Notes under the pieces: generated by a model | Databases searched by the model: none | What the model was told of the DNA's origin: nothing | The model's input: only the letters and a program-made list of their open reading frames with translations | Shown here: in pieces, positions 2,775-64,000 of the stretch | Position numbering within the stretch: the stretch's first letter is position 1 | How the letters are laid out: every line of letters starts with the position of its first letter | Source of the DNA: Salminus brasiliensis | Lineage: Eukaryota | DNA length: 64,000 nt | Assembly: GCF_030463535.1 (NCBI RefSeq) | Contig: NC_132885.1 | Span: forward strand, 19,665,786-19,729,785 | Direction: 5' to 3' | Position numbers and translations under genes: made by a program

Positions 2775-3053
2775 TTATTTAGGTAGTAATGGCTGTCGTT
2801 CAGCTGAAAAGAATCCAGTTATGGTTGTATGGCCTGTATACTTTTTTATTTGGTCCAGTTTGGTCTGTACATTGACCTCAGCACGCTCTTTGACCTCTTC
2901 TTTAAGTTTTACTTTCAGCAAGTTGTCAGTCTCTTCCAGTACGTATTCATTAAAGAGAGTCTTATTGTAGAACTTGTGTCCTGCTCTTTTTGAACAGCAT
3001 AAAACGAGTGCCCATAACACCAACATCCCACACAGGAGAGCCAAGCCAAAGAC
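2775..3053 (-). CDS. CALHM/FAM26-like paralog A, coding exon 2 (TM4 VFGLALL... plus C-terminal helix, stop)
   Basis: Acceptor tttattttcaag|GTCTTTGGC, in frame with ORF 2775..3074. Same VFGL/VYGL/IIGL exon-2 start as paralogs B and C. Confidence 0.6.
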   Translation of the reverse strand, partial: VFGLALLCGMLVLWALVLCCSKRAGHKFYNKTLFNEYVLEETDNLLKVKLKEEVKERAEVNVQTKLDQIKKYTGHTTITGFFSAERQPLLPK

Positions 3054-3197
3054 CTTGAAAATAAATGTTTGCAATGAGAAAGCATAATCAGCATCAAGAT
3101 AAATCCACAGTGGGTAACTAATTCATATTAAATAACACCATCATCCTGACACATCATTTCATTTGACAGAAACCAGTTGATTAAATACAGTACTTAC

Positions 3198-3671
3198 ACA
3201 TGACACACTTTTCCAGTGTCTCATAGCTGCATAATCGTCACCTGTAGGTTTGTTTTTACAAGCTGGTTGCTCACTTCTGACTGTTATGTTCCGTGATGTT
3301 GTTTGAAGGCAGACCCACCAGTCTCCATCTATCAGTGCAGTTACGATCCATAGCAAACCCACTGCAAAAGCTCTCAGAAGTCGATTAAGAATTACACCAC
3401 TGTAAGTACAACAGTTCCTGTCTGTAAAAATCTCCAAAAATGTGTTGTCCACCACGATTATAATGCTGAAAAAAATGATGAAGGGAAGAATCATATAAAG
3501 TAAGCAGAACCAGGCGTTGTCTTCAGGGTCGCACGGACAAACAAACTCCTGTTTGAAAAGATAACTGAAGGTAACAAAAAAGAAAGCCACAGCAAAAGCA
3601 CCACCAGCTGATGTTAGTACTTTTGGTAGGGCTGCAGTATCAAAGTTTGGATGTTGCATGGCAGGTTGCAT
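3198..3671 (-). CDS. CALHM/FAM26-like paralog A, coding exon 1 (N-term, TM1-3, FVCPC and LIDGDWWVC motifs); donor GTAAGT at 3197-3192
   Basis: ORF 3159..3671 minus. Motifs LLTSAGGAF, FVCPCD, ALIDGDWWVC resemble human CALHM5/6 (LLTAGGERIF, FQCPCS, ALLGGAFYEC). Donor immediately after KSVSC. The start could instead be the downstream Met (MQHPNFD). Confidence 0.65.
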
Positions 3672-9075: not shown

Positions 9076-11800
9076 TTTGGTCATGTTCAGGTTGCAGTTG
9101 ATCAGGATTTGGGGTTGATGCTGGTTGTGTTCAGGTTGCAGTTGATCAGGATTTGGGGTTGATGCTGGTCGTGTTCAGGTTGCAGTTGATCAGGATTTGG
9201 GGGTTGATGCTGGTCGTGTTCAGGTTGCAGTTGTTCAGGATTTGGGGGTTGATGCTGGTCATGTTCAAGTTGCAGTTGATCAGGATTTGGGGGTTTATGC
9301 TGGTCGGGTTCAGGTTGCAGTTGTTCAGGATTTGGGGGTTGATGCTGGTCGTGTTCAAGTTGCAGTTGATCAGGATTTGGGGTTGATGCTGGTCGTGTTC
9401 AGGTTGCAGTTGATCAGGATTTGGGGGTTGATGCTGGTCGGGTTCAGGTTGCAGTTGATCAGGATTTGGGGGTTGATGCTGGTCGTGTTCAGGTTGCAGT
9501 TGATCAGGATTTTGGGTTGATGCTGGTCGTTTTCAGGATGCAGTTGATCAGGATTTGGGGGTTGATGTTGGTCGTGTTCAGGATGCAATTGATCAGATTT
9601 GGGGGTTTATGCTGGTCGGGTTCAGGTTGCAGTTGATCAGGATTTGGGGTTGATACTGGTTGTGTTCAGGTTGCAGTTGATCAGGATTTGGGGTTGATGC
9701 TGGTTGTGTTCAGGTTGCAGTTGATCAGGATTTGGGGTTGATGCTGATGGGGTTCAGGTTGCAGTTGATCAGGATTTGGGGGTTGATGCTGGTCAGGTTC
9801 AGGTTGCAGTTGATCAGGATTTGGGGGTTGATGCTGGTCAGGTTCAGGTTGCAGTTGATCAGGATTTGGGGTTGATGCTGGTCGTGTTCAGGTTGCAGTT
9901 GATCAGGATTTGGGGTTGATGCTGGTCGTGTTCAGGTTGCAGTTGATCAGGATTTTGGGTTGATGCTGGTCGTTTTCAGGATGCAGTTGATCAGGATTTG
10001 GGGGTTGATGTTGGTCGTGTTCAGGATGCAATTGATCATATTTGGGGGTTTATGCTGGTCGGGTTCAGGTTGCAGTTGATCAGGATTTGGGGTTGATACT
10101 GGTTGTGTTCAGGTTGCAGTTGATCAGGATTTGGGGTTGATACTGGTTGTGTTCAGGTTGCAGTTGATCAGGATTTGGGGTTGATGCTGATGGGGTTCAG
10201 GTTGCAGTTGATCAGGATTTGGGGGTTGATGCTGGTCAGGTTCAGGTTGCAGTTGATCAGGATTTGGGGTTGATGCTGGTCAGGTTCAGGTTGCAGTTGA
10301 TCAGGATTTGGGGTTGATGCTGGTTGGGTTCAGGTTGCAGTTGATCAGGATTTGGGGTTGATGCTGGTCGGGTTCAGGTTGCAGTTGATCAGATTTTGGG
10401 GTTGACGCTGGTCGGGTTCAGGTTGCAGTTGATCAGATTTTGGGGTTGATGCTGGTCAGGTTCAGGTTGCAGTTGATCAGGATTTGGGGGTTGATGCTGG
10501 TCAGGTTCAGGTTGCAGTTGATCAGGATTTGGGGGTTGATGCTGGTCAGGTTCAGGTTGCAGTTGATCAGGATTTGGGGGTTGATGCTGGTCAGGTTCAG
10601 GTTGCAGTTGATCAGGATTTGGGGGTTGAAACTGGTCGGGTTCAGGTTGCAGTTGATCAGGATTTGGGGGTTGAAACTGGTCGGGTTCAGGTTGCAGTTG
10701 ATCAGGATTTGGGGGTTGATGCTGGTCAGGTTCAGGTTGCAGTTGATCAGGATTTGGGGTTGATGCTGGTTGTGTTCAGGTTGCAGTTGATCAGGATTTG
10801 GGGGTTGATGCTGGTCGTGTTCAGGTTGCAGTTGATCAGGATTTTGGGTTGATGCTGGTCGTTTTCAGGATGCAGTTGATCAGGATTTGGGGGTTGATGT
10901 TGGTCGTGTTCAGGATGCAATTGATCAGATTTGGGGGTTTATGCTGGTCGGGTTCAGGCTGCAGTTGATCAGGATTTGGGGTTGATACTGGTTGTGTTCA
11001 GGTTGCAGTTGATCAGGATTTGGGGTTGATGCTGGTTGTGTTCAGGTTGCAGTTGATCAGGATTTGGGGTTGATGCTGGTTGTGTTCAGGTTGCAGTTGA
11101 TCAGGATTTGGGGGTTGATGCTGGTCGGGTTCAGGTTGCAGTTGATCAGGATTTGGGGGTTTATGCTGGTCGGGTTCAGGTTGCAGTTGATCAGGATTTG
11201 GGGTTGATGCTGGTTGTGTTCAGGTTGCAGTTGATCAGGATTTGGGGGTTGATGCTGGTCGGGTTCAGGTTGCAGTTGATCAGGATTTGGGGTTGATACT
11301 GGTCGGGTTCAGGTTGCAGTTGATCAGGATTTGGGGGTTGATGCTGATGGGGTTCAGGTTGCAGTTGATCAGGATTTGGGGGTTGATGCTGGTCAGGTTC
11401 AGGTTGCAGTTGATCAGGATTTGGGGTTGATGCTGGTTGTGTTCAGGTTGCAGTTGATCAGGATTTGGGGGATGATGCTGGTCAGGTTCAGGTTGCAGTT
11501 GATCAGGATTTGGGGTTCATGCTGGTCGTGTTCAGGTTGCAGTTGATCAGGATTTGGGGTTGATGCTGGTCGGGTTCAGGTTGCAGTTGATCAGATTTGG
11601 GGGTTTATGCTGGTCGGGGTTTCAGGTTGCAGTGGATCAGGATTTGGGGGATGATGCTGGTCGTGTTCAGGTTGCAGTTGATCAGGATTTGGGGGATGAT
11701 GCTGGTCAGGTTCAGGTTGCAGTTGATCAGGATTTGGGGTTGATGCTAATCTGTTTCAGGTTGCAGTTGATCAGAACTTGGGGGTTGTTGCTGGTCATGG
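9076..11800. repeat. 44/45-bp minisatellite (GTTCAGGTTGCAGTTGATCAGGATTTGGGGTTGATGCTGGTCGT), about 61 copies, with a roughly 444-bp (10-monomer) higher-order periodicity
   Basis: The variant block gattttgggttgatgctggtcgttttcaggatg recurs at about 9507, 9950 and 10839 (spacings 443 and 889 bp). All ORFs inside are artifacts. Confidence 0.92.
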
Positions 11801-12052
11801 ATTTGCAGTAGGGGTTGAATGCTGTTGTGGAATATCAAGCAGGCCGGTCTTTTTCAGTTTATTTTTTGCATTTACTGTTGCCTTGACTTTGGACAGCTCT
11901 TTAATGCTCTTTTCTAGAAGTTGGTCAGTCTCCTCCAGCACATATTCACCATACAAAGCCTGCTTACAGGATTTGTATCCTTTGCTTTCTGAAAAATATA
12001 TACCTATTGCCCATAAAATTAATATCACAGCCAGCACAGCCAATCCATACAC
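11795..12052 (-). CDS. CALHM/FAM26-like paralog B, coding exon 2 (TM4 and C-terminus, stop at 11795-11797)
   Basis: Acceptor ctccttaag|GTGTATGGATTG, in frame with ORF 11795..12085. The stop codon sits inside the last degenerate unit of the 9076-11800 minisatellite. Confidence 0.65.
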   Translation of the reverse strand: MYGLAVLAVILILWAIGIYFSESKGYKSCKQALYGEYVLEETDQLLEKSIKELSKVKATVNAKNKLKKTGLLDIPQQHSTPTANP

Positions 12053-12156
12053 CTTAAGGAGAATGTTTGAAAAGAGAAAGCACAATTTTTATAAATTGTA
12101 GTTATTTAATTTAACAACATTTCAAGGAATACAAAATCACTAGATTGAATACTTAC

Positions 12157-12606
12157 ACGCGATTGATTTGTGAAGTGTCTGATATTTGCAAATTCATCAC
12201 TGGTAGGTTCCTTCTTGCAAGCTGGCTGTTCAGTCCTGACTGTTATGTTGGTTGACGTGGTCATAATGCACACTAGGCAGTCACCATCCAGGAGTACTGT
12301 TACAATCCATAGTAAGCACACAGTTGTAGCTCTCAGAATTCGCTTCAAACATGAAATTAATTGACAGGAGGAACAAAGATTAATAAAGATTTTGTCTGCT
12401 ACGATTATAATTCCAAAAAATATGGAAGCGGGTGCAAAAATGTAAATCGAGCAAAACCACAGGTTTTCTTCATGGTCGCACGGGCAATCAAACTCCAGTT
12501 TAAAAATATACTGGGAAGTAACAAAAAAGAGGATGCCTACAAATGCACCATCAGCTGATGTTAGCAGCTGTGATAGCGCTTTAGTGCTGAAGTCCGGATG
12601 GGTCAT
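12157..12606 (-). CDS. CALHM/FAM26-like paralog B, coding exon 1
   Basis: ORF 12106..12606 minus: MTHPDFSTKALSQLLTSADGAFVG...FDCPCDHEEN...TVLLDGDCLVC...HFTNQSR|gtaagt (donor 12156-12151). Confidence 0.7.
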
Positions 12607-15181: not shown

Positions 15182-15520
15182 TCATGGATGGGTCCTTGCT
15201 CCCTCCAAGTGGAATGTTGGGTGAGAAATTGTCCTCCAGACATTTTCCTCTGCAGCCCCTAGTGGCTCGTACTGAATATGACGGGCATCTCCCTGCCCAC
15301 TGTTCACAGGCTGACTCTGAACATATCTCAGTACATTCTCACTGACCAGCTTGGCTCTTTCCACTGCCTGCTCTTGTAGCTTTTCCTCCAGCATAGCAGA
15401 GGTCTCCCGCTCCACATAAACCTCAAACAATGACCTGTAATACGGCTTCCACCGGGTCTTGAGGGCTGAACTTACAGTCAACAGGAGAGAGAGTCCCAGA
15501 ATGAGAATCAGTCCAATTAT
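15182..15520 (-). CDS. CALHM/FAM26-like paralog C, coding exon 2 (IIGLILILGLSLL TM4 plus coiled C-terminus, stop)
   Basis: Acceptor tcttccag|ATAATTGGACTG at 15521/15520. Frame is continuous with ORF 15182..15481; the track M there is TTG. Confidence 0.65.
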   Translation of the reverse strand: MIGLILILGLSLLLTVSSALKTRWKPYYRSLFEVYVERETSAMLEEKLQEQAVERAKLVSENVLRYVQSQPVNSGQGDARHIQYEPLGAAEENVWRTISHPTFHLEGARTHP

Positions 15521-16573
15521 CTGGAAGACAGATACAGAGAGGTTTTAATGATTCAAGCCTGCACTCAAACCTTCACACACTGCAAGTTAAGATGGTTTAT
15601 TCTTTCTCCTGTAAAGTGGCCATTTGGAGAGTTTCTGTGTGACAGCGATGGCACATCATGCTGGTCATGTTTACACAGCTTGTCCTTAGTCTTCGACCAG
15701 TTGGTTGATTATATGAGGTGAGCTTCAGCTTGGTTTATATGAAAGCGTACTGCCACTCCAGCTTATTCTGGGTCAGATTTGTGGCCCCTGATCCCAGACC
15801 CATAGGCACACCCCAAAATACCTAACACAGCTACTTCCCAAAGCCTGTGCTGCAGCCAAGAAAGGCTGTGTTTCTTGACTGAAGGCTGTTTGGTTTTGTA
15901 AAGTGCTTACGATTATTATCATCATTATTATTCAAATTATTATTATCATTGTGAGAGCCATTATCTCTAAATATAGAAACCCTGGAAGAGTGGTGGATCT
16001 TCACAGAAGTCACAAGAGAACCCAGGCAAAAATGTAAGAAAGTCTACTTTACTTAAAGTTTAACTATATTATTAAAAGTAGCAAAGGACGCAACTCCCAC
16101 TATTTATAATGGCCTGCATGAGATGAACATAAAAAAAGGGCAGGGCTCAACATTACTGATGGAAGGCCAGGAAGAGGACGTTTTGACTTTCACCTGATGA
16201 AGGCCATGTGGTGCCCAAACTTCAAGACATTATTAATGCATTGGGTGAATAAAGGCATCTTTTACGCAGTGGGAGTTGCTCCTTCTTGGGTCAGGGATCA
16301 TTATTCCACCATTAGGAAGAGAGTCCTCTGACATCTGACATATACAATATACAATGGTGGTGGTTGTATAATGATGGTAGGATGCTTTACTACTTCAGGG
16401 CCTGGATGACCTGCTATAATTGACCGCTTGTGGTGCTCCTCAGCGCCAGAGGTAATGCCAGGGTACCTTCTATACCGTAGACACGTGCGTAAAATGAATG
16501 CACACCGCAGATTCAGCGTAAAAGGTTTGTGTGGTTGAATCCTGGTAAGAATTAGCATACAGTAAGTACTCAC

Positions 16574-17143
16574 CCTGGATTCGCTGTTGTACTTTCTTAA
16601 AGTTTCTGCTTCTTGCGGGGTTGGCAAATCCTTGCAGGCGATTTGTTCCCCCGTGCCGTTCACAACGACGGTCCGGACGCACACGTACCAGTCACCGTCG
16701 AGAAACGCGACCACGATCCAGAGGGATGCCGCGTAAAACACGTTCAGCACGTGTCTCCCGATCAGACCGCAGAAATGCCAGCCTTCCTCCCCGAAGCTTT
16801 TGGGGCGGTAACAGTAGCCGCCAGCACAACAGCAGCACTCAAACGTGTCACAGCACTCACTGCTGCTGCAGCACCTTTTCTCCGAGCGGACACAGCACTG
16901 ACACACATAACACTGGCACACCTTCAGCAGCTGCGAGTCCAGCAGGATGAGGATGAAGAACATGATTCCCACTGGAAGCAGCAGATAGAGCCAGCAGTGC
17001 ACCGCGGTCTCCTCGGGAGCTGTGCATGGACACGTGAACACGAACTTGAAGAAGATGACTGTGGTCACCACGGCGATGACCGTCCTTACAGGATGCCTGC
17101 TTAATACGTCCAGATTTGTCGGATAAGATGGATATCGTGACAT
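16574..17143 (-). CDS. CALHM/FAM26-like paralog C, coding exon 1, with Cys-rich TM2-TM3 loop insertion
   Basis: ORF 16301..17143 minus: MSRYPSYP...FTCPCTAPEE...AFLDGDWYVC...NSESR|gtgagt (donor 16573-16568). 190 codons. Confidence 0.7.
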
Positions 17144-17149
17144 ATTTAG

Positions 17150-17400
17150 GATATATATTGAAACCAGTGCAAATATAATACTGATTACGTGCCTCGCCGC
17201 ATTTTGTTAGGAGCCGTGTTGTGTTTAGAAACGCAAACCGACGGCACAAATGTCCGCCCAGCTTCCCATTGGATGTTGCGGGGAAGGTGAGGCGGGGTCA
17301 CGAGGAGTGAGCCAATGAGTGGAGCGCTTTGCTACGCATGTCCCGCCCTCTGGCCTGCTGACGTATGTTGGTCCATGCTTTAGGCTGTAATCTGAAGCAC
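17150..17400 (-). promoter_or_regulatory. Putative promoter of CALHM-like C: CCAAT boxes (ccattgg about 17268, gccaatgag about 17313), GC boxes (ggcggggtc, cccgccctc)
   Basis: Motifs lie 120-250 bp upstream of the ATG at 17143 on the minus strand. Confidence 0.35.
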
Positions 17401-20400
17401 GGGATGCGTCTGGAATCGCACACAGCTACTTTATTGTACATGCACTAAACTAGTGAATGCACTTCTAGTGCTGTTTTTAACTTACTGTTTAGTACAGTAG
17501 TACACAGTTTTAGACCCAGCCAGGTTGTTTTGCTCTTGGACTAAACTTCGCAGCTTCTGAGGGCGTGTCAGTGTTATGTGTCTTTCTCGATCCGGCTTTT
17601 CTCACTACCGGTTTTGTTCGCTAATGAGTTCAATTAAGTTTGTTCGAGCAGAAATAACGTGTACGTGCAGGAGGATGTACTGCTTATCTCAGTTTGTAGT
17701 CAGGTAGAAATATCTGTACAGGGCCACATATTGTTTTGTTCGTACCACCATCACCAAGATGTGATTCATGCCATGGCTATTGTATTCACTGCCATTTTTA
17801 CATTTTACATGAGTAATTTACCACAGCGAGAATTCCTGATCTTAATGAATGACTTAATGAAAAACAGCAAGGTGGGGATGAGATGAAACGTTATAATTGA
17901 GGAGACCAGCCACTGGATGAACTATGAATGGGAGCTCTCTTAAAGCTCAACATGGCGTCTGATTACGGAAGTCCCGCCTTTCAACATAAAGAGCCAATTA
18001 GATTGCTGGTTTCCCTTAAAGCGGAGGAACGACACGCTATGTGGAGATCTGCGCAAGCGCAGTAGCCAGAACAATTCGACAAATCGCGTTATTGAGCCAA
18101 AATATATAAACTATTAATGAGGGGTTTGTCAGATTTTATTAATGACTTAAAATGTCTTTGAAACAGTAATTTGACCTTAAGTTTAAAGTATTTTGGTCTC
18201 TACCCATCCATAATGACAGAAGCCTGGTCTTGAATGACTGGAAATATGGCTGTATAGTGAACAGACTTGCCTATAGAGACTTAAGGATAAGAGCACATCC
18301 ACTAACACAGATTTGATCAAAGCAGTTGTGGGGGTCTAGATGTTGTGAAGGGAGTTTTCTTCACCTTCATCTACTTTAAATGTTGTAGTCTGTTGTCTTC
18401 TGGGCCTTTTGGTGTTTCTGAGCTTGCCAGTGCATTCCTTCTTTTTCATAAAACCTCCTAAAATATCCATGTAGAGTTATTGCCCATGGCAGTTCTAATG
18501 TGAGTGTAGTCAGGGCTGGTGTTTTTATGAGCTACCAATGCAGGTTTGACAGCATTATAAGATAAAACAACATGGGTTACATGGGATAAAAACAACAATC
18601 TGGGATATCGATAGTATGTAATTTGTCACATAATACAAAGTCATATAGAGATTTTGGAGACAAAGAAATTCAAGTTATAAAATGAAAGTGATACAGTTTG
18701 CATGACTTTATGTGATTGTATCTCCTGCAAACAGAGTGTCTTGTGACTCCTGCAGAGTAAAATCTGTATAATCATTTAAACACTTTAGATATGCTGGTTG
18801 AAACGTTGCCTCATGTCAAAAGCACAGTTATCACAGATTAACCGTTCAGCCTCTGCCTTTTGGCCTTTGCCCAGATCTTCTGCTCACATGTTCAGATAAA
18901 CAAATTAAAAGTAAATAAACACATCATTCATATTTTGGCCACAAAATAAAAAATGGTTAATTACTGTCAGAGTAGATTGTTTAAAAATGAACTGTTTATC
19001 ATTTAGAAATGGAATGAAAAGCAGTAATAAAGCGAACATTTAAATATTTGAGAAAATACTGAACTTCATTTCATTTCGTTTTTCAAACTTAATATTAGTC
19101 ATTATTCTAAAGATGTGTCTGTTTTCCCTGTTTCTCGGTAAGTGAGTACATGTGTGTAACTTTGTATTGTGTTTTGTGCTTTATTTGCATTCATATAAGG
19201 TTAGCTAGCTAACAATCAGATAAGAAAAGTACAGAAATCTATAGCTAATTTGTGAAAGTGTATTGGCTAAGCATTACAGGGGAAAAATGATTGACTGCCC
19301 TCTAGCGTGCCCCTTCTTGCAATGAATTACAATGATTTGATAATGTGTCTTAATGAGTGCCCTTCTATGAGCACCTTTTCAATAGAAAAGGGTGCCATTA
19401 TGGAGTGCTCTCTATGCTGCTCCTATTTAGTTAGGGGTTTTGTCCCTACAGTGTCTGAATGAGTAGAGAAAATGAGACGCAGTGTTGTATAGTGTTCTCC
19501 TACAAGTATGAACATGATAAAGTGCCCAATTAGATGCTCCTGTAATGGAGAAATGCCTCTCAAGTGGATAAAATGAGATGCAGACCTGTGTGAGAATGTG
19601 CGCTGTAAAACCTTAATGCACAACTTATTTAATTAATTAAGTTCATTTAACATAAATACTACAGACAGGTGGAGTAACTTAAGGTGATTAAGTCAAACTA
19701 ACTCAAAAATGACTATATTGACTCTTTGCTCCATCTATTTGCATGTTGGGCCTGTCTTTCCCCCTCACTCACCATGATTGTGTAGTCATTCCCCCAGGCT
19801 ACCTTCCCCTATGTGTTCAGTTGGAATCTGTTGTGTCTAGCTGCCTGGCCTCAGTGCTGAAAGCTGTTAACACTAGTTGTTGCTGAGTGTGGCTGTATAT
19901 TGGCTTAATTCTGACATAAAGTGGACTAAATAAACTGTTGGTGCAGAATTATGTATCAGTGTTTGGCTGAATTTGTGCTTAGTTTTGTGCTGTTCCTGCT
20001 TAAGCACACCTGATTTCATTCACTTGTTAATTGGTGGGTTTAATAGTTTTTTTTTTATAGCAGGGAAATCAGTCATCTGTGCTGGGACAAGGAGCCCCTG
20101 TTGCCTTCTCTGCAATTCTGTTGTGAAGACCTTTGTTTTACAGTGTGGTGACGTTTCCTAATGAAAACCCCTTCAGGAAAAAAATGTGATGTGCTTGTCC
20201 ATATGTTTCCTCATAATCAAATATATTCTTTTTCTACAGGTGTCTGTCTGATGACATAAAAACTCATAAAGTGCTCATAGTGTTCCCTTCAGGTAGTTCA
20301 CAACAACAAGTACATTGTTGTTATTGTTGGTGAACATCTATTCCATCCATTTAGGTTTTTAGTTTTAGCCAGACTCCCTCTAGTATGTGCAGAAGCCAAG

Positions 20401-45355: not shown

Positions 45356-45715
45356 CCTCCCAGGGCACTGTGAAGACTAGTGCCCCCTTTCCAGTGGGTA
45401 ACCTAGGACAAGACGTGGTTCTGGAATGCAGGTTCCTCACGAAAACTGGAGGGGATCGTTCTAGTGACGTGCTCATCACCTGGGAGAAAGATGGTCTCAG
45501 TGGGTTGGTTTATCAGTACAAGAACAACGCAGCACAGTTACAGGATCAGAACTCACTGTTCCAAAACCGGGCTCAGCTCTTCCCAGATGCCATCGCTGGT
45601 GGCAACGCTTCCCTAGTCCTGAGGAGTGTAAGGATGGCGGATGCAGGTGTGTACCGCAGCAGTGTGAGTGCTCCTGGAGTCTGGGGTAGAGTCGACATTG
45701 ACCTTAGAGTGAGTG
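45356..45715 (+). CDS. vtcn1: VTCN1/B7-H4 exon 3 (IgV domain)
   Basis: Phase 1 to phase 1. ...DVVLECRF...VLITWEKDGLSGLVYQYKNN...FPDAIAGGNASLVLRSVRMADAGVYRSSVS resembles human ...GILSCTFEPD...IVIQWLKEGVLGLVHEFKEG...FADQVIVGNASLRLKNVQLTDAGTYKCYII. Confidence 0.85.
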
Positions 45716-45902
45716 GTAAGCAACTCCAGTGTATTTTAGTATATTCAAAAATGGGGGGGTGTAACAATGCAGGCAGCCCGTGACTGAATTTGATTCATGA
45801 TACAAAATGATTCACTGTGTGTATGTGGTAAGCCCTAACTTTTGAACGATCATGATACCTCATCATGACATTCATGAGTGTTGTTTTGTGTGCTGTTTGC
45901 AG

Positions 45903-48530: not shown

Positions 48531-49021
48531 ATGTCATTCCGTGAGGGAGATCTAGCTCACGAGCCCAAGTCTGGGATTAAGACGATCCACGGGAATGGGA
48601 ATGGGAATGGGAATGGGAATCTCAGTAACTCCAGAGCCGTGTGTCGGGTCTGTGACCGGATGTTTAGGGAGCCTAAAATCCTCCCGTGTCTGCACACTTT
48701 CTGCGCCGACTGTATTCGGCAGATCGAGCCGTTCTCCGTGCTGGGCGCTGACCGGAGGAGACCGTGGTCTGGGGATGAGGGTCTCGGGCGCAGTCCGATC
48801 CCTCTGACGGTCCTGTGTCCTGCGTGCGATTCCGAAGTGGACCTGCCCTCATCGGGCGTGGATGGGCTCACTACTGACCACCTTGCCCTGGACGAAGTGT
48901 TCATGGAGACTCTCCTGTTGGAGGACAGCGTCTTGTGTGATCTGTGCAGCGACAGTGATGCAGGGAAGCGGTGTGAGGTGTGCTGCGTCAACCTCTGCGA
49001 CTTCTGTAGCCAGGCTCACAG
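48531..49021 (+). CDS. trim45: TRIM45 coding exon 1 (RING C3HC4 plus B-box 1)
   Basis: CRVCDRMFREPKILPCLHTFCADCIRQIEPFSV...VLCPACDSEVDLPSSGVDGLTTDHLA...CDLCSD...EKRC.VC..NLCDFCSQAHR resembles human TRIM45 CPLCLGLFKAPRLLPCLHTVCTTCLEQLEPFSV...ILCPVCDAQVDLPMGGVKALTIDHLA...CDLCND...CQTCKANLCHFCCQAHR. Donor ag|gtcagt. Confidence 0.9.
48591..48620 (+). repeat. trim45: (GGGAAT)5 hexanucleotide repeat inside TRIM45 exon 1, encoding (GN)5
   Basis: cac GGGAAT x5 ctc gives HGNGNGNGNGNL. Confidence 0.9.
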
Positions 49022-49739
49022 GTCAGTATGAGCTCATGTTTATTGGTGTAAATGTACAGACTGTCTTATGCAAACGTTTCCATGCGTTTTTGGTTTTCTA
49101 AGTGGGATTAGGTTCACATCCTCTACAAAGACACGTCTGCACATTCCCAAGCACAGTTACTGTGTATGATGTGCTTGATTGAACATATTGCAAAGACTAC
49201 AAAATGTTCAAAAATAATGGCAAATGAAATAAGTTATATATATGTTAATTTCAGATAATATACAGAAATTGAGCTTTAAAATGTGTCATATTTAAGTTAT
49301 ATTTCCACCAAGAAAATTAGCTAAATGTGACTTTTCAACAGGGGTGTCCAAACTTTTGCAGAAGACTGTACTCTTGAGTTTTCTATCTTAAGCTTTTTGG
49401 CTTTATTTTTTCCTGCTGTAACTTTTTCTGATTACCGTCATTTTTATTAGATATTAATTTATATTACTTTTAACTGCTGAAATCATGAACTAATGTTTTT
49501 TTTCTCTTTCCAACAAATTAATCTCATTAATGTTACCATGTCATAAAAGAATCCAAATAATTATAGATTTTCTATCATTTCTATTGGTCCATCCATCATG
49601 AAATTTTGACACAATGTAAATAAGAACAGCCAGATTTACATAATCTCAAACAATGAACAAAATGGCATTACTACATTTATTATATGCTATATGTATATTT
49701 ATTATATTAATATACACTATTTGTATTTTTTATACACTA

Positions 49740-50140
49740 TATGTCCACTATATGTGCAGACACCTGCTTATCCAGTGTTTCTTCTCAAATAAAGTGTGTT
49801 AAAGTGTGTTAATAGGGAGTTTGTCTTCTCTTTATTATGATAACGGCTTCATCTCTTGTAAGAAGGCTGGAAGGCATGACACTAGACATTATAACATTGC
49901 TATAAGGATTTGATTGCTTTTCAGCAATGAATGAGGTACTGATAAACATGTACCTCTTTTGGAATAAACAAACAAACATAATTTCAAACGTGCAAAGTCT
50001 CACATGCAGCTGCTTTTCTATAGAGATTGTACACTGTATGCTCAACAGAACGCCTCTGTCAGCAATGGGTGCACTTTAGAGTAGCTAAACACACTTATTA
50101 AAAAGGGTGTCTGGATGTGTTTGGACATATAGTGCCGCAA
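49740..50140. mobile_element. Deleted Tc1-like element in TRIM45 intron 1 (TIRs cactatatgtccactatatgtgcagacacc / ggtgtctggatgtgtttggacatatagtg)
   Basis: Inverted termini about 400 bp apart. Confidence 0.5.
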
Positions 50141-50387
50141 GACCTTCATGAGTTGAATTTAGATTGTTAGCAGAGAGAAATCTCTGCAGGGCTGTGGCTT
50201 TGGGTGCAGCTGCAGTCTCTATGACCACCCCCCTTCCCACTTAACAGAAGAAGCCAATAATATTTTTTGTGGACACAAAATTTAGGCCCAAGGGCCCCTG
50301 GGTGGCCAGTTAAGCTTTCCCCCAGCTGTGGCCTTCCAGCACAGACTTTGATATGTCTGACTTAACACATTGCACTGTTCTCCACAG

Positions 50388-51139
50388 GAGGCAGAAGCGG
50401 ACATCAAGTCACTCTATCCATAGCTTGGACGACCTGAAGTCCCAGGGTCGTCTCTCCCGGCCTGTCCTGTGCTCGCTGCACCCAGGTCAGGAGCTGCGGC
50501 TCTTCTGTGACCCCTGTGACCTGGCCGTTTGCCTGGAGTGTGCTGCCGCGTTTCACCGGGACCACCAGTGCAGCCCAACTCATGATGTCATTAACCAGCA
50601 TGGTGATCGTATCCGGGAGCTGGTTTCTGGGAGCCTGAGGCCTCGTCTCGGCCGTCTGGAGGAGGCGCTGCGACGTGTGGAGATATCCCAGGAAGCCTTA
50701 AAGACTCGCACTGATTCGCTGGCGAGCGAGATTCGGGCTTTTGCTCGGAGCTATGCCAGTGCGGTGGAGGCCCACTGCTGCTCTCTGCTGCGCACTCTGG
50801 AGGAGCTGAGGCTTCAGCGGCGAAACCAGCTCAACCTGCAGAGCGTCCAGCTGCAGCAGGCACTGTCCGACGCCCGCGGAAGTGTGGAGTTCGCAGAACG
50901 CCTGCTCACATGTGGCTCTGAAGCAGAGATCCTGAGTGCCAAGGGAGTCACCATGAGGAGGTTAATGAGCCTGCTGGAGTGTGGCTATGATCCACACCCA
51001 GCCACAGTCGGGAATGACAACGGTAGCAGTATGTACTTTTTACCACAGGAGAGCGCTGGGCAGGTGGACAGCTTCCCCATGGTTGGAGTCCTGCATGCCA
51101 GGACAGTAGACCCCAGCAAATGCACCATCCAGGGAGAAG
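50388..51139 (+). CDS. trim45: TRIM45 exon 2 (B-box 2 plus coiled coil)
   Basis: RQKRTSSHS...PVLCSLHPGQELRLFCDPCDLAVCLEC...HQCSPTHDVINQHGD...VDPSKCTIQGE resembles human RQKKTTYHT...PILCPVHPAEELRLFCEFCDRPVCQDC...HPCDFTSNVIHKHGD...VDPAKCVLQGE. Confidence 0.9.
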
Positions 51140-53389
51140 GTAAGGATAAGGGTTAAAGAGGCAAGTTAGCAGTAGTTCATGGAAAAACATGATGGATTCT
51201 TTTGCCCTATCACAGAGCATGTAGGAGGTACTGGTGCATATTTCAGCAATAGAAGAATAGTTTATTAGGCAGCTTTGTCGTTCAGCTGAAAGAAAAGCGA
51301 TTTAGTGGTGGAGGGGTGGAGTTACTGAATGACACATTGGTTCTGGGCCATACAAGGCTAAGGTCCTGGACATAACTATTTTTGTAATTACTATTTTTGC
51401 TAGTTATTGGATAATATAGCTCTGGGAAGACACAGCTGTGATGAGCAGTCAAGGTTATTTCATAGTTAGTGATTTCTGAATGCTCTCATAGTTCAAATAT
51501 TAGTTCTGTGATGTTTAAATTTGAGGAATAACTTCTTTGCATTATAATTAGTATAATCATTTATTTGCATTATTTGAGCAGTTGATATTTCTGCAAATAA
51601 ATGCTCCAAAAAGCAGTATTTTTATTTGGAATTCAGGGGAAATGTTGTCCGTGGTTTTATGAAATACAACGCAAATGCAAATTTCCCTAAACACACTGCT
51701 TATAAATAGTAAAACCAGAGAAACTGATAATGTAGGGTGGTCTCTCTTTCCAGAGCTTTTTCCAGAATGCTAAAACTGAAGAATTGCATGTCAATATAAT
51801 GATGTATTGATATTAACAATAAATCACCCAGAACTGTAAAAACTTGATGAAGCAATTTTAGATGTTTTGATGTTGATATTGAGTGTAGGTGTGTGACTGG
51901 CTCAGTACCCAGGCGAGCAATATCAGTTCTCGCACAATGCTGTTTTACTTCCTAACCCCACTGTAGAAATAGTTAAATCCACTGTAGACAACTCTAGGGC
52001 ACGGGTGCATAAGGGGTCAGATACAATGAACTCTGCAGAATTTGCAGAGAGTACAGCTGCAGCAGGCACACATGCTGTCACTACTAGAGTGCATACCACT
52101 GCCACACTCTCATGCTCTCATCTGGATTTGCTCCAAACCACATTATTCACAATGAAAATACATCACCTGCCTCTTCAGTCAGTTCTGTTCTGTTTGAACA
52201 TCTTACTTTTTCTGCCACAAGCAGAATATACAAACACACACACACACATGCACGCACATGCCTGGGGGAATGGAATGCAGGGAACACTAGTAGATCACAT
52301 TCCTGGTTCCCATGGCAACTTTTCAGTTGGTGGTGTCAGTCCTGGTTTCCTTTGCTGTGTCACAACGTGCCTCATTAGAGGTTCACTTACCAGCCAGACT
52401 GTTAAAAAGACCCTGAGATGGTGTGAAAAGCACACAGCTGTGTGTATTATCATTAGTAACTATTATCATTTATTATTTTTTTATTATTTTGTTTTTTAAC
52501 CAGGTGAGCAGTTTTGAAGTATGACTTTGTTTCTGTCTGAATTAAACCCTGCACTGTGGTGCAGAAAAAGCTCAGAGAGAAGCATAGTCAATGCACTCTC
52601 TTTACTATAGTGTCTCTGTAAAAACCACCTCCATTGTGTAGTGTGCTAAGTCTGTGTGTTGCCTGTACTGAGATAAAAACACTTATGTGAAATCCTCTGT
52701 CAGCAGCTTGTCGCTACATATTGCACCCATGTCCTACTTCTACAGTCACTGTGCTGCTAGAACGTTTGCGAACCTTCTGGCTTGCCCATGTGGTCTGGAG
52801 TAAACGTTTTGGAGGGTAATGGCTTCCTCCTTGCTCTCTTGCCACAAACACAGTTCTTATTCAGTGGTGGACACAGGGACATTGACATCACTCAGTGCAA
52901 GATATCTGCCAATCTGACTGCCTATTTTATTGGGAGGGTAACTGTAGTATATATTTTTGTCATTTGTATAATTAGACTCTAGATGATTCTGATTTATGCA
53001 AAAGTTTTAAAAAAAAATGGGAAGGCTCCGAAACCTTTCTAGTGGCACTGGACCTGATTTGTAGTTTGAAATGTAGGTGACTAAGAGTCAGTTTTTCACA
53101 CAACTGCAGTGCCAGTGGTGACTCGAGGCTTAATAGGCTTAATATGGCTCTAAAAACTAGCTCTAAAGCTTGACACTGTTCTCTTTGATAGGATTTAGAT
53201 CTGAGAACCAGGTATGTGCTAGTGTAAATAACAATAGGCCATTCCACTCAGACAGGGCAAAACAAAAAAATAAATTCTACCTCTTTAGTTTAGTGCTTGT
53301 GGTTAATGATGGAGTAACAAGTTATAGAATGCAAAGCTCTGGAGCAGCTGCACATCTGAGTCTTTGTCTAATGCCATGCGTCAGCTGGG

Positions 53390-62770: not shown

Positions 62771-63337
62771 CCTTTTTTTGCTCTCCAAAATCTGCTTTTA
62801 TCCTCAATCTCAAATATGCCTCAAATGCATGCTGTTTATTTGCCTATTCTTCTCAGGCTGGCAGTGTGCTTTCTTCAGTCTGACTCAAACATCATCAGAT
62901 GTTTCCAGGGGGGTGGGGGTGGGGGTGGGGGGTTCTGCACCACACTTATGGCACATTTGCAACAGGCCAGAGAGCTGCCACTAATTCACCCTCTGAGGGT
63001 GAGTGAGATAAATCAGAGGAGTGCTGCTGTAGAGCAGGAACAGACTGGCCTACTGGCAGCTCAAGGCCTCGACAACGGAGTGAATTAAATGAATAGCTTC
63101 ACACCTCAGCAGAATGTGAGCACATTTTTTGACAGGCACACTTGTGCCAAGGCTATGAATCGTAGGCAAAGAATCTGATAAATAGTTGGAGAACAACCTC
63201 AGATCTGCTCCTACTTTTAGTAGCTGTGGCTGAGTTATTTTTAAACGGTGATGTACAGCATAACCCATGTTGTGTTGAGTGAGTGAAACACACAACTAAC
63301 GTTAAACTAAATGATGTGAATAAATGAAAAAGAACAG

Positions 63338-63509
<172 letters not shown>

Positions 63510-64000
63510 CGGTGCGTAATTGTGAGACGCTCCCTTGCTTTACTAAGCGCCACTGGATGGGATGTTGGAGGACTGAGGGGAGGAGTACTTAGTTGTTGCA
63601 GTGACAACATCCTGGACATAAGAGGCTGGCGGTGCCCATGGCTACTGAAAAAGGGAGGTTTAAGCGCGTCTAGATTCAACAGGAGGATCTGAAGACACGG
63701 AGATGCTTTAAAAAATCACTTCTCGGCGTTTTGGCCAGGGGCTGCGATTTAACCCGCGGCACCGACGAGGTGATGCAGCTGCAGCGGCTAGACAGATGAT
63801 CGGTCTGCTCCTCTACTAGCTCAGATGCCTTTACAGAAAAAGGCGCAGCATTCAGATCAGGTCGGGTGGATTTCGCTATTAAAAGAGGATTTCTCGCTTT
63901 AGTTAGATAACGTCCAGCAGCTGCGATGCCAATAATTATACTGTATTAACCACGGAGGCTAGTCTGTACAGAGGTGGTAATCTTGCTATTTGGTAAAGGT

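Follow-up and report, generated by a model that had tools for sequence, protein, structure and literature searches.

A conserved poly-cysteine block in a predicted cytoplasmic loop of a fish CALHM-like protein, a candidate multiply S-acylated membrane anchor

Channels of the CALHM (FAM26) family release ATP and have roles in taste and in immune signalling; how they are regulated is poorly known. Here we describe a gene of this family from the characiform fish Salminus brasiliensis, termed paralog C, which encodes a block of 14 cysteines within 36 amino acids in the loop between the second and third transmembrane segments (TM2 and TM3). The gene lies in a stretch of 64,000 nucleotides of contig NC_132885.1 (positions 19,665,786 to 19,729,785, assembly GCF_030463535.1). 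This whole stretch is called the window in the following, and all coordinates refer to it. An earlier note, made from the sequence alone, had drawn attention to the cysteine-rich segment. We followed up this observation by computational analysis.

Gene structure, family membership and topology

The window contains three tandem CALHM-like genes on the minus strand, paralogs A (2775-3671), B (11795-12606) and C (15182-17143), which have a two-exon layout in common. Coding exon 1 of paralog C (17143..16574, minus strand) comprises 190 codons (aa 1-190) and ends at the donor AGG/GTGAGT. Coding exon 2 (15520..15182, minus strand), which was also found with tblastn, is joined in frame at the acceptor TTCCAG/ATA and adds 112 codons (aa 191-302) and the stop codon. 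The first exon encodes the N-terminus, TM1, an extracellular CPC motif (C38, C40), TM2, the poly-Cys loop, TM3 and, at its end, an extracellular loop with C155, C170 and the glycosylation motif N162-G-T. The second exon encodes TM4 and the C-terminal helix (helices 176-213 and 217-259 in the AlphaFold2 (AF2) model); the juxtamembrane segment following TM4 contains no Cys. This two-exon model yields the product of 302 aa that the earlier note had predicted, and a database protein annotated as 'uncharacterized protein [Salminus brasiliensis]' (NCBI/UniRef, P0001) is 100% identical to it. The poly-Cys peptide quoted in that note, whose interval 16770-16925 corresponds to aa 74-125, is encoded exactly on the minus strand, and the loop peptides given there for the same position of paralogs A and B proved to be correct when the open reading frames (ORFs) were checked.

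Paralog C was assigned to the CALHM/FAM26 family in the earlier note, and three kinds of comparison agree with this. The protein matches the Pfam family Ca_hom_mod (PF14798) over aa 21-247 with 52.1 bits, above the cut-off of 25 bits; for paralogs A and B the match amounts to 43 and 47 bits, respectively. A profile made from 12 orthologues matched chains of the solved structures of CLHM-1, CALHM6, CALHM5 and CALHM1 in the PDB, to which paralog C is related with an identity of 14-20%. An AF2 model was built from an alignment of 44 relatives and reached a mean predicted local distance difference test score (pLDDT) of 78.6, with 85-97 in the core. A version based only on the 12 close orthologues had a mean pLDDT of 45.7 and was discarded. 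When the model was compared with the PDB using Foldseek, the best 29 matches were all CALHM1/2/4/5/6 or CLHM-1 with a probability of 1.00, and the next match had E > 2. The TM-scores were just 0.40-0.66, the cause being a differing orientation of the C-terminal helix.

The hydropathy profile shows four TM segments (18-42, 46-80, 131-150 and 187-212). The extracellular cysteines C38 and C40, a CxC motif after TM1, and C155 and C170 in the TM3-TM4 loop are invariant in the 44-sequence alignment. They are the counterparts of the cysteines that form the disulfides C42-C127 and C44-C161 of CALHM1, as given in PMC8560582; the corresponding disulfides in paralog C are predicted. Among the orthologues the TM3-TM4 loop has kept the N162-G-T motif almost without exception. 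Hydropathy and the AF2 model both place the block between TM2 and TM3, as the earlier note had stated, and in solved CALHM channels this loop is cytoplasmic, in CALHM1 lying outside the centre pore (PMC10307800). Based on the topology of the family, the conserved extracellular cysteines and the N-glycosylation motif we infer that the block forms part of a cytoplasmic loop and extends from 7 residues after Asp69 to shortly before TM3.

Paralogs A and B are smaller. For paralog B, exon 1 (12157..12606, minus strand) is an ORF of 150 aa, which together with exon 2 (~11795..12052) gives a GT..AG model that is in frame and encodes a product of 235 aa. In paralog A an ORF of 158 aa (3198..3671, minus strand) and exon 2 (~2775..3053) encode a product of 250 aa. 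The introns of both genes measure ~100-145 bp, and their short loops contain 2-4 Cys. The loop of paralog A (DNTFLEIFTDRNCCTYS) has 2 Cys, and that of paralog B (DKIFINLCSSCQLISC) has kept the Cys at +7 from the Asp at the end of TM2. A second Ca_hom_mod gene is also found downstream of the orthologue of paralog C at the Prochilodus and Serrasalmus loci.

Composition and conservation of the poly-Cys block

The block comprises aa 76-111 (16918..16811, minus strand; CQCYVCQCCVRSEKRCCSSSECCDTFECCCCAGGYC) with 14 Cys in 36 aa. Within aa 74-127 there are 15 Cys, so that the count of 17 Cys in about 45 residues given in the earlier note was slightly too high; the complete protein contains 20. The entire TM2-TM3 loop, with bounds taken from hydropathy and the AF2 helices, reaches from D69 to C125 (16769..16939, minus strand) and contains 15 Cys in 57 aa. 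Both D69 and C125 are invariant among the orthologues. The first Cys of the block, C76, is situated 7 residues past D69 at the end of TM2, and C125 is the Cys at the cytoplasmic end of TM3, at the start of this helix. Cysteines make up 39% of the block and are arranged in CxC, CxxC, CC and CCCC motifs; His is absent. The block is too weakly hydrophobic for a TM segment in the hydropathy analysis, and AF2 predicts a coil with a pLDDT of ~50-56.

In a six-frame scan of all stop-free 36-aa stretches of the window the block was the sole outlier, with 14 Cys compared with 7 in the next-best stretch. The binomial probability of such a stretch is ~3e-10 per 36 aa, with ~1.2e5 stretches scanned, and the block is far beyond what is expected by chance. 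Its Cys codons are 7 TGC and 7 TGT, and Tandem Repeats Finder (TRF) reported no tandem repeat at the block DNA. As there is no TRF array and the two codons are mixed, a microsatellite origin was ruled out as a sufficient explanation.

The orthologue survey covered the Characiformes, Siluriformes and Cypriniformes. Orthologues were found in Prochilodus, Serrasalmus, Astyanax and Hoplias (Characiformes), in Ictalurus, Pangasius, Tachysurus, Hemibagrus, Trichomycterus, Silurus and Clarias (Siluriformes) and in Cyprinus, Puntigrus and Danionella (Cypriniformes). Nearly all of them have retained the block, with the consensus LCQCYVCRCCVRAExRCCxSxCCDxxECCCCAGGYCYRP; it is mostly lost in P0015, P0026 and the Danionella protein P0021. 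The order of the Cys groups, CxCxxCxCC...CC...CC...CCCC...C, is well conserved within the Otophysi. The length of the CCCC run varies, being 4 in most species, 5 in Astyanax, 6 in Silurus and 8 in P0024, a fragment derived from Logan, and indels of 4-8 residues that remove Cys pairs are tolerated in Astyanax, Trichomycterus, Puntigrus and Silurus.

At seven orthologous genomic loci the gene has the same two-exon structure with the block within exon 1. PARP4 is the divergent neighbour in each case, and the seven loci are therefore positional orthologues. A Logan contig of 1311 nt (SRR8367569) contains an uninterrupted orthologous ORF of 301 aa that spans the exon junction and includes the block. 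Since all genomic copies have an intron of 0.9-3.7 kb at this junction, the contig represents spliced mRNA. The earlier note had named two outcomes that would have discredited the block, namely its removal by an intron and its absence from all orthologues. Neither was found, as the block is uninterrupted in exon 1, is retained in a spliced transcript and is conserved in three orders of fish. Paralog C is thus an intact and expressed gene that belongs to a branch of the CALHM (FAM26) large-pore channels specific for fish, and its product is predicted to be a channel subunit.

We determined the ratio of nonsynonymous to synonymous substitutions (dN/dS, Nei-Gojobori) from a codon alignment of nine species, in which the Prochilodus coding sequence was read from Met5 on, the annotated model being longer by 4 aa at its N-terminus. 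The block and the TM core both gave a ratio of 0.15 and the remaining sequence one of 0.16, with dS saturated at ~1.3-1.4. In the same alignment the conserved Cys columns interchange TGC and TGT freely. Within the block 11/14 Cys positions are conserved to >=90%, compared with 4/22 spacer positions (Fisher p = 5e-4), which shows that the purifying selection on the block is specific for Cys. The block is kept by selection in Cypriniformes, Characiformes and Siluriformes.

Cysteine-rich loops among relatives, and the neighbourhood of the gene

A profile search of 1.84 billion representatives yielded 178 relatives at E <= 1e-3, all of them nearer to the query than the human CALHMs. The named relatives come from teleosts and rays and are labelled 'CALHM5-like', 'CALHM6-like' or 'uncharacterized' by NCBI. 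For the comparison of the loops we used the 84 sequences in which both TM2 and TM3 aligned to the profile, the otophysan orthologues included. Almost all of them have Cys in the TM2-TM3 loop, and the numbers form a continuum from 1 to 26. The loop contains 26 Cys in 92 aa in Menidia menidia (P0048), 18 in 67 aa in the ray Mobula hypostoma (P0040), 16 in 84 aa in Boleophthalmus (P0062), 13 in 48 aa in Micropterus (P0055), 10 in 36 aa in a 'CALHM6-like' protein of Channa, 9 in 42 aa in Arapaima and 5 in 24 aa in Megalops, the nearest outgroup. In the 56 non-otophysan fish and ray relatives, with a median of 6 Cys, the loop consists of 15.9% Cys as against 4.5% in the rest of the protein.

These non-otophysan relatives have in common the proximal motif D-K-x-F-x-R-x-C-[RK]-[CY]-Y-x-C-x-C-C, and in most fish CALHM-like relatives one finds D-x-x-[FL]-x-[KR]-x-C-x-C/Y-Y-x-C-x-C-C, the proximal portion of the block. 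The loop of human CALHM6 also has a small Cys cluster at the same place (LTGCCSSARASCGS...C). The otophysan block is thus an ancestral juxtamembrane Cys motif that has been extended distally, by R90-CC...ECCCC...C111, in this clade. In a rough neighbour-joining tree of the core the otophysan clade is monophyletic, and Cys-rich loops stand beside Cys-poor sisters, for example 26 beside 7 Cys in Menidia and 18 beside 7 in Mobula. This arrangement points to large Cys expansions of the loop that arose repeatedly and independently. With a ray among the bearers, the tendency towards such expansions either predates the teleosts or is convergent.

The earlier note had described the block as a module grafted onto, or inserted into, one paralog. 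This description does not hold, because the proximal motif is common to most fish relatives, the loops are generally Cys-rich and equal or larger expansions are found in unrelated lineages; the otophysan block is rather an elaboration of an ancestral Cys-bearing loop. Several relatives (P0104, P0151, P0123, P0158 and P0101) carry a poly-Cys cluster directly after TM4, instead of or besides the TM2-TM3 loop; the cluster of P0104 (...LIC-SCVRGKCCKECCKKRCCKCCYECCYECCCCKCC) has up to 18 Cys in 36 aa.

In the searchable literature, from which most subscription journals are excluded, we found no account of a Cys-rich CALHM loop or of this fish clade; the earlier note likewise could find no description of the feature for the family. 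A search of the literature for the gene symbols of the orthologues and for the Sequence Read Archive run likewise returned nothing. Since the relatives follow the same trend, the block is less singular than the earlier note had assumed; the family-wide pattern is a useful lead in its own right and appears to be undescribed.

Several features were noted around the gene. The vault PARP gene PARP4 (plus strand, from ~21.9-27 kb onward) is the head-to-head neighbour of paralog C in Salminus, as it is at the seven orthologous loci (L002-L008). Towards PARP4, 120-260 bp upstream of the ATG of paralog C, a conserved non-coding stretch (17266..17402) was recognised by its tblastx collinearity with the Serrasalmus locus; it is a candidate shared, bidirectional promoter region of PARP4 and paralog C. 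About 400 bp upstream of the ATG, at 17548-17581 on the plus strand, a stretch of 34 nt matches in inverted orientation the DNA for the last part of TM2 and the first part of the block (30/34 identical, E 4.6e-4 in a comparison within the window). None of the seven orthologous loci has this match, which was not considered part of the feature and is probably due to chance or a scrap specific for Salminus.

The intron of paralog C reads GGGCIMMVGCFTTSGPG at ~16356-16406 on the plus strand, which by eye resembles a conserved motif of Tc1/mariner transposases and which we take to be probably a decayed transposon. One gene model of Hemibagrus (P0022) is chimeric and includes a Tc1-like DDE domain; at the Prochilodus locus a DDE_3 ORF adjoins the orthologue. 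Further away the plus strand of the window contains a V-set immunoglobulin-like exon (45370-45783) and a RING/B-box TRIM-like gene (48531-51156). A V-set/C2-set gene is found beside the orthologue at the Ictalurus locus and an SNF2/GRF-zinc-ribbon (TTF2-like) gene at the Trichomycterus locus. Taken together, the V-set, TRIM-like and TTF2-like neighbours are reminiscent of the human VTCN1-TRIM45-TTF2 neighbourhood. Long low-complexity or minisatellite stretches are situated at 409-1152, 10484-11520 (between paralogs A and B) and 63302-63692; their translations contain repeated HTLYI-type and GVDAGQVQVAVDQDL / PNPDQLQPEPDQHQP-type units, and a (GA/CT)n run is also present.

S-acylation and alternative functions of the block

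CALHM1 is S-acylated at C100, next to TM3, and at C207, next to TM4, and CALHM3 at C99, C200 and C204; the modification is carried out by ZDHHC3/7/20/15 and has an effect on voltage gating and raft association (PMC10903462). In our alignment residue 100 of killifish CALHM1 falls on profile position 128, at most one helical turn from the invariant C125. Judged by sequence, the two places at which Cys is inflated in the family, before TM3 and right after TM4, are the two known acylation sites of CALHM1 and CALHM3. The cysteines of the block start a few residues from the end of TM2, on what is predicted to be the cytosolic side, and the thiols are constrained, whereas their spacing and number are loose. 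Selection on thiols with free spacers, tolerance of indels and of CCCC runs of different length, and the lack of a confident fold are predicted by a lipidation string and not by a folded metal domain. For these reasons, together with the acylation precedents at the same sites, we favour as the probable explanation that the block serves as a juxtamembrane anchor palmitoylated at multiple sites. Many of its thiols would be modified by zDHHC acyltransferases embedded in the membrane, and the acylated loop would lie flat against the inner leaflet, giving each subunit a dense lipid anchor at its outer rim, which faces the lipid. If CALHM1/CALHM3 and the C-cys anchor of P2X7 are taken as a guide, such an anchor may set gating or voltage dependence, partitioning into lipid microdomains and/or trafficking of the oligomer.

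Some observations weigh against the acylated anchor. The distal half of the block lies 25-40 residues from the end of TM2, further away than is typical where a single juxtamembrane site is acylated. If every thiol were acylated, a subunit would bear fourteen acyl chains and an 8-11-mer more than 100, an unusually large number, and some of the thiols may serve otherwise. The conserved order of the Cys groups in the Otophysi is not required if any Cys would do, and the acidic residues E88, E96, D99 and E102 are atypical of the basic, membrane-hugging acylation motifs.

Part of these observations would be accounted for by a metal-thiolate or redox module, that is, a cytoplasmic collar regulating the channel whose thiols bind Zn, Cu, Cd or Fe-S or sense redox state or nitrosylation. 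The Cys content of 39% with CxC, CxxC, CC and CCCC motifs, the order of Cys groups conserved over three orders, the presence of acidic residues in a block that is not strongly basic and the distance of the distal cysteines from the membrane would fit such a module, and control of CALHM1 by S-nitrosylation is reported in PMC11059852. When searched alone, however, the loop gave no Pfam match at E <= 10, metallothioneins and zinc fingers included, and no relative in the PDB, where just nanobody and toxin noise was found at E >= 0.23. A search of the block alone against a word index of 5.8 billion proteins gave no candidate sharing three words, a result that is uninformative on other families. Classical vertebrate metallothioneins are not known to contain aromatic residues, whereas Y79, Y110 and Y112 are conserved in or beside the block, which in addition contains no His. 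Deletions of Cys pairs, CCCC runs of variable length and a range of 1-26 Cys among the relatives fit a fixed coordination geometry poorly, AF2 gives no confident fold, and the position right after a TM helix as well as the second hotspot after TM4 coincide with known acylation sites. We therefore regard a metal or redox module as unlikely. Of the two functions suggested in the earlier note, S-palmitoylation is thus the better supported, as a deduction from precedent, while a metallothionein-like site gained no positive support in view of the missing Pfam match, the conserved aromatics and the Cys-pair indels. Less likely still is a stronger form, in which lipid anchoring is not the role of the 14-Cys string, or not its sole role, and a ring of more than 100 thiols (8-11 subunits) at the cytoplasmic rim binds Zn/Cu/Fe-S or buffers or senses redox state, coupling channel opening to the metal or oxidative state. 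If true, regulation by a thiol ring would be a principle undescribed for any large-pore channel that had evolved repeatedly in fish CALHM-like paralogs.

The cysteines could also serve as a structural scaffold, cross-linking neighbouring subunits or knotting the loop by disulfides and thereby stabilising a particular oligomer. Many of the cysteines are paired (CC), and the size of CALHM oligomers is variable and set by cytoplasmic elements (PMC10307800). Given that the loop is cytosolic and the cytosol reducing, that spacers and Cys number vary and that no confident structure is predicted, we consider this scaffold improbable. The Cys run could also be a neutral low-complexity expansion that arose when TGC/TGT-rich DNA slipped during replication and that has simply been tolerated since. 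This reading would be consistent with the differing CCCC runs, with the recurrence of similar expansions in relatives and with the loss of most of the block in some lineages. It is largely refuted by the dN/dS of the block, which, with dS saturated, is the same as in the TM core, and by the Cys-specific conservation, the Cys columns surviving TGC/TGT turnover in DNA that has no tandem repeat; as a full explanation it is highly improbable, although slippage probably supplies the raw variation in the length of the CCCC run. Finally, the segment could be an annotation artefact, being intronic, frameshifted or part of a pseudogene. The block does contain a splice-donor-like GTGAGT (16860..16855, minus strand, codons S95-E96-C97), which we rejected as a cryptic donor because in the codon alignment the hexamer is absent from the orthologues and the codons downstream of it are under purifying selection. 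With an intact ORF, canonical splice sites, seven orthologous loci with the block in exon 1 and a spliced contig retaining it, an artefact is hardly conceivable.

S-acylation at one or two juxtamembrane Cys, shown for CALHM1 and CALHM3, is among the few known post-translational controls of CALHM. A thiol density like that of a cysteine string, retained over a very long time at an acylation position, is a natural gain-of-feature experiment, and so is the repeated inflation of Cys at the two acylation positions in fish and rays. Going by this pattern, the degree to which the TM2-TM3 loop and the segment after TM4 are anchored by lipids would be a tunable and selectable property of the CALHM family. 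Natural variants with 1 to 26 Cys would allow the effect of acyl load on gating, oligomer size, pore plugging by lipid or raft targeting to be studied. The analysis also draws attention to an uncharacterised fish-specific CALHM clade with at least 178 clusters at 50% identity.

Comparison with known Cys-rich segments

The closest known counterparts are CALHM1 and CALHM3, which belong to the same family, have the same fold and carry Cys at the cytoplasmic juxtamembrane ends by TM3. They differ from paralog C in having one Cys in the loop instead of 15; the 36-aa string is absent from CALHM1-3. Conversely, the acylated Cys that CALHM1 and CALHM3 have after TM4 is missing in paralog C. Of the solved relatives, human CALHM6 (FAM26F) is among those nearest in sequence (6ytv, E 2.9e-5), and the small Cys cluster of its loop (LTGCCSSARASCGSALRGSLVC) is found at the same place, with 5 Cys compared with 15 in paralog C. 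In the literature searched no report on acylation of the CALHM6 loop was found.

Outside the family, the C-cys anchor of P2X7 (SNCCRSHIYPWCKCCQPC) is a Cys-rich segment that begins where a TM helix of this ATP-related channel enters the cytoplasm, is poly-palmitoylated and anchored in the inner leaflet and controls gating in that it prevents desensitisation; its number of Cys varies between vertebrate lineages (PMC7016195). The likeness is one of functional analogy only, as P2X7 is of an unrelated family and fold and its anchor comprises 18 aa with ~6 Cys and follows the last TM helix rather than lying between helices. The cysteine string of DNAJC5 (CSP-alpha), with ~14 Cys in ~24 aa, is comparable to the block in Cys density. 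DNAJC5 is a soluble co-chaperone with no sequence kinship to paralog C, and the string is its sole membrane anchor, whereas the string of paralog C is flanked by two TM helices. According to PMC10903463 the Cys-rich domain of CSP-alpha is palmitoylated and confers membrane attachment. The palmitoylated tail of the SARS-CoV-2 spike protein is another precedent for a dense Cys string.

Metallothioneins resemble the block in their Cys content of ~30-40% and in their CxC, CC and CxxC motifs. The block differs from them in matching no metallothionein profile, in its conserved aromatics, in its juxtamembrane site in a membrane protein and in its variable number and spacing of Cys. Compared with all these systems, the poly-Cys block of paralog C is best classed as an extreme elaboration, conserved over a long time, of an S-acylation site already known from an established channel family.

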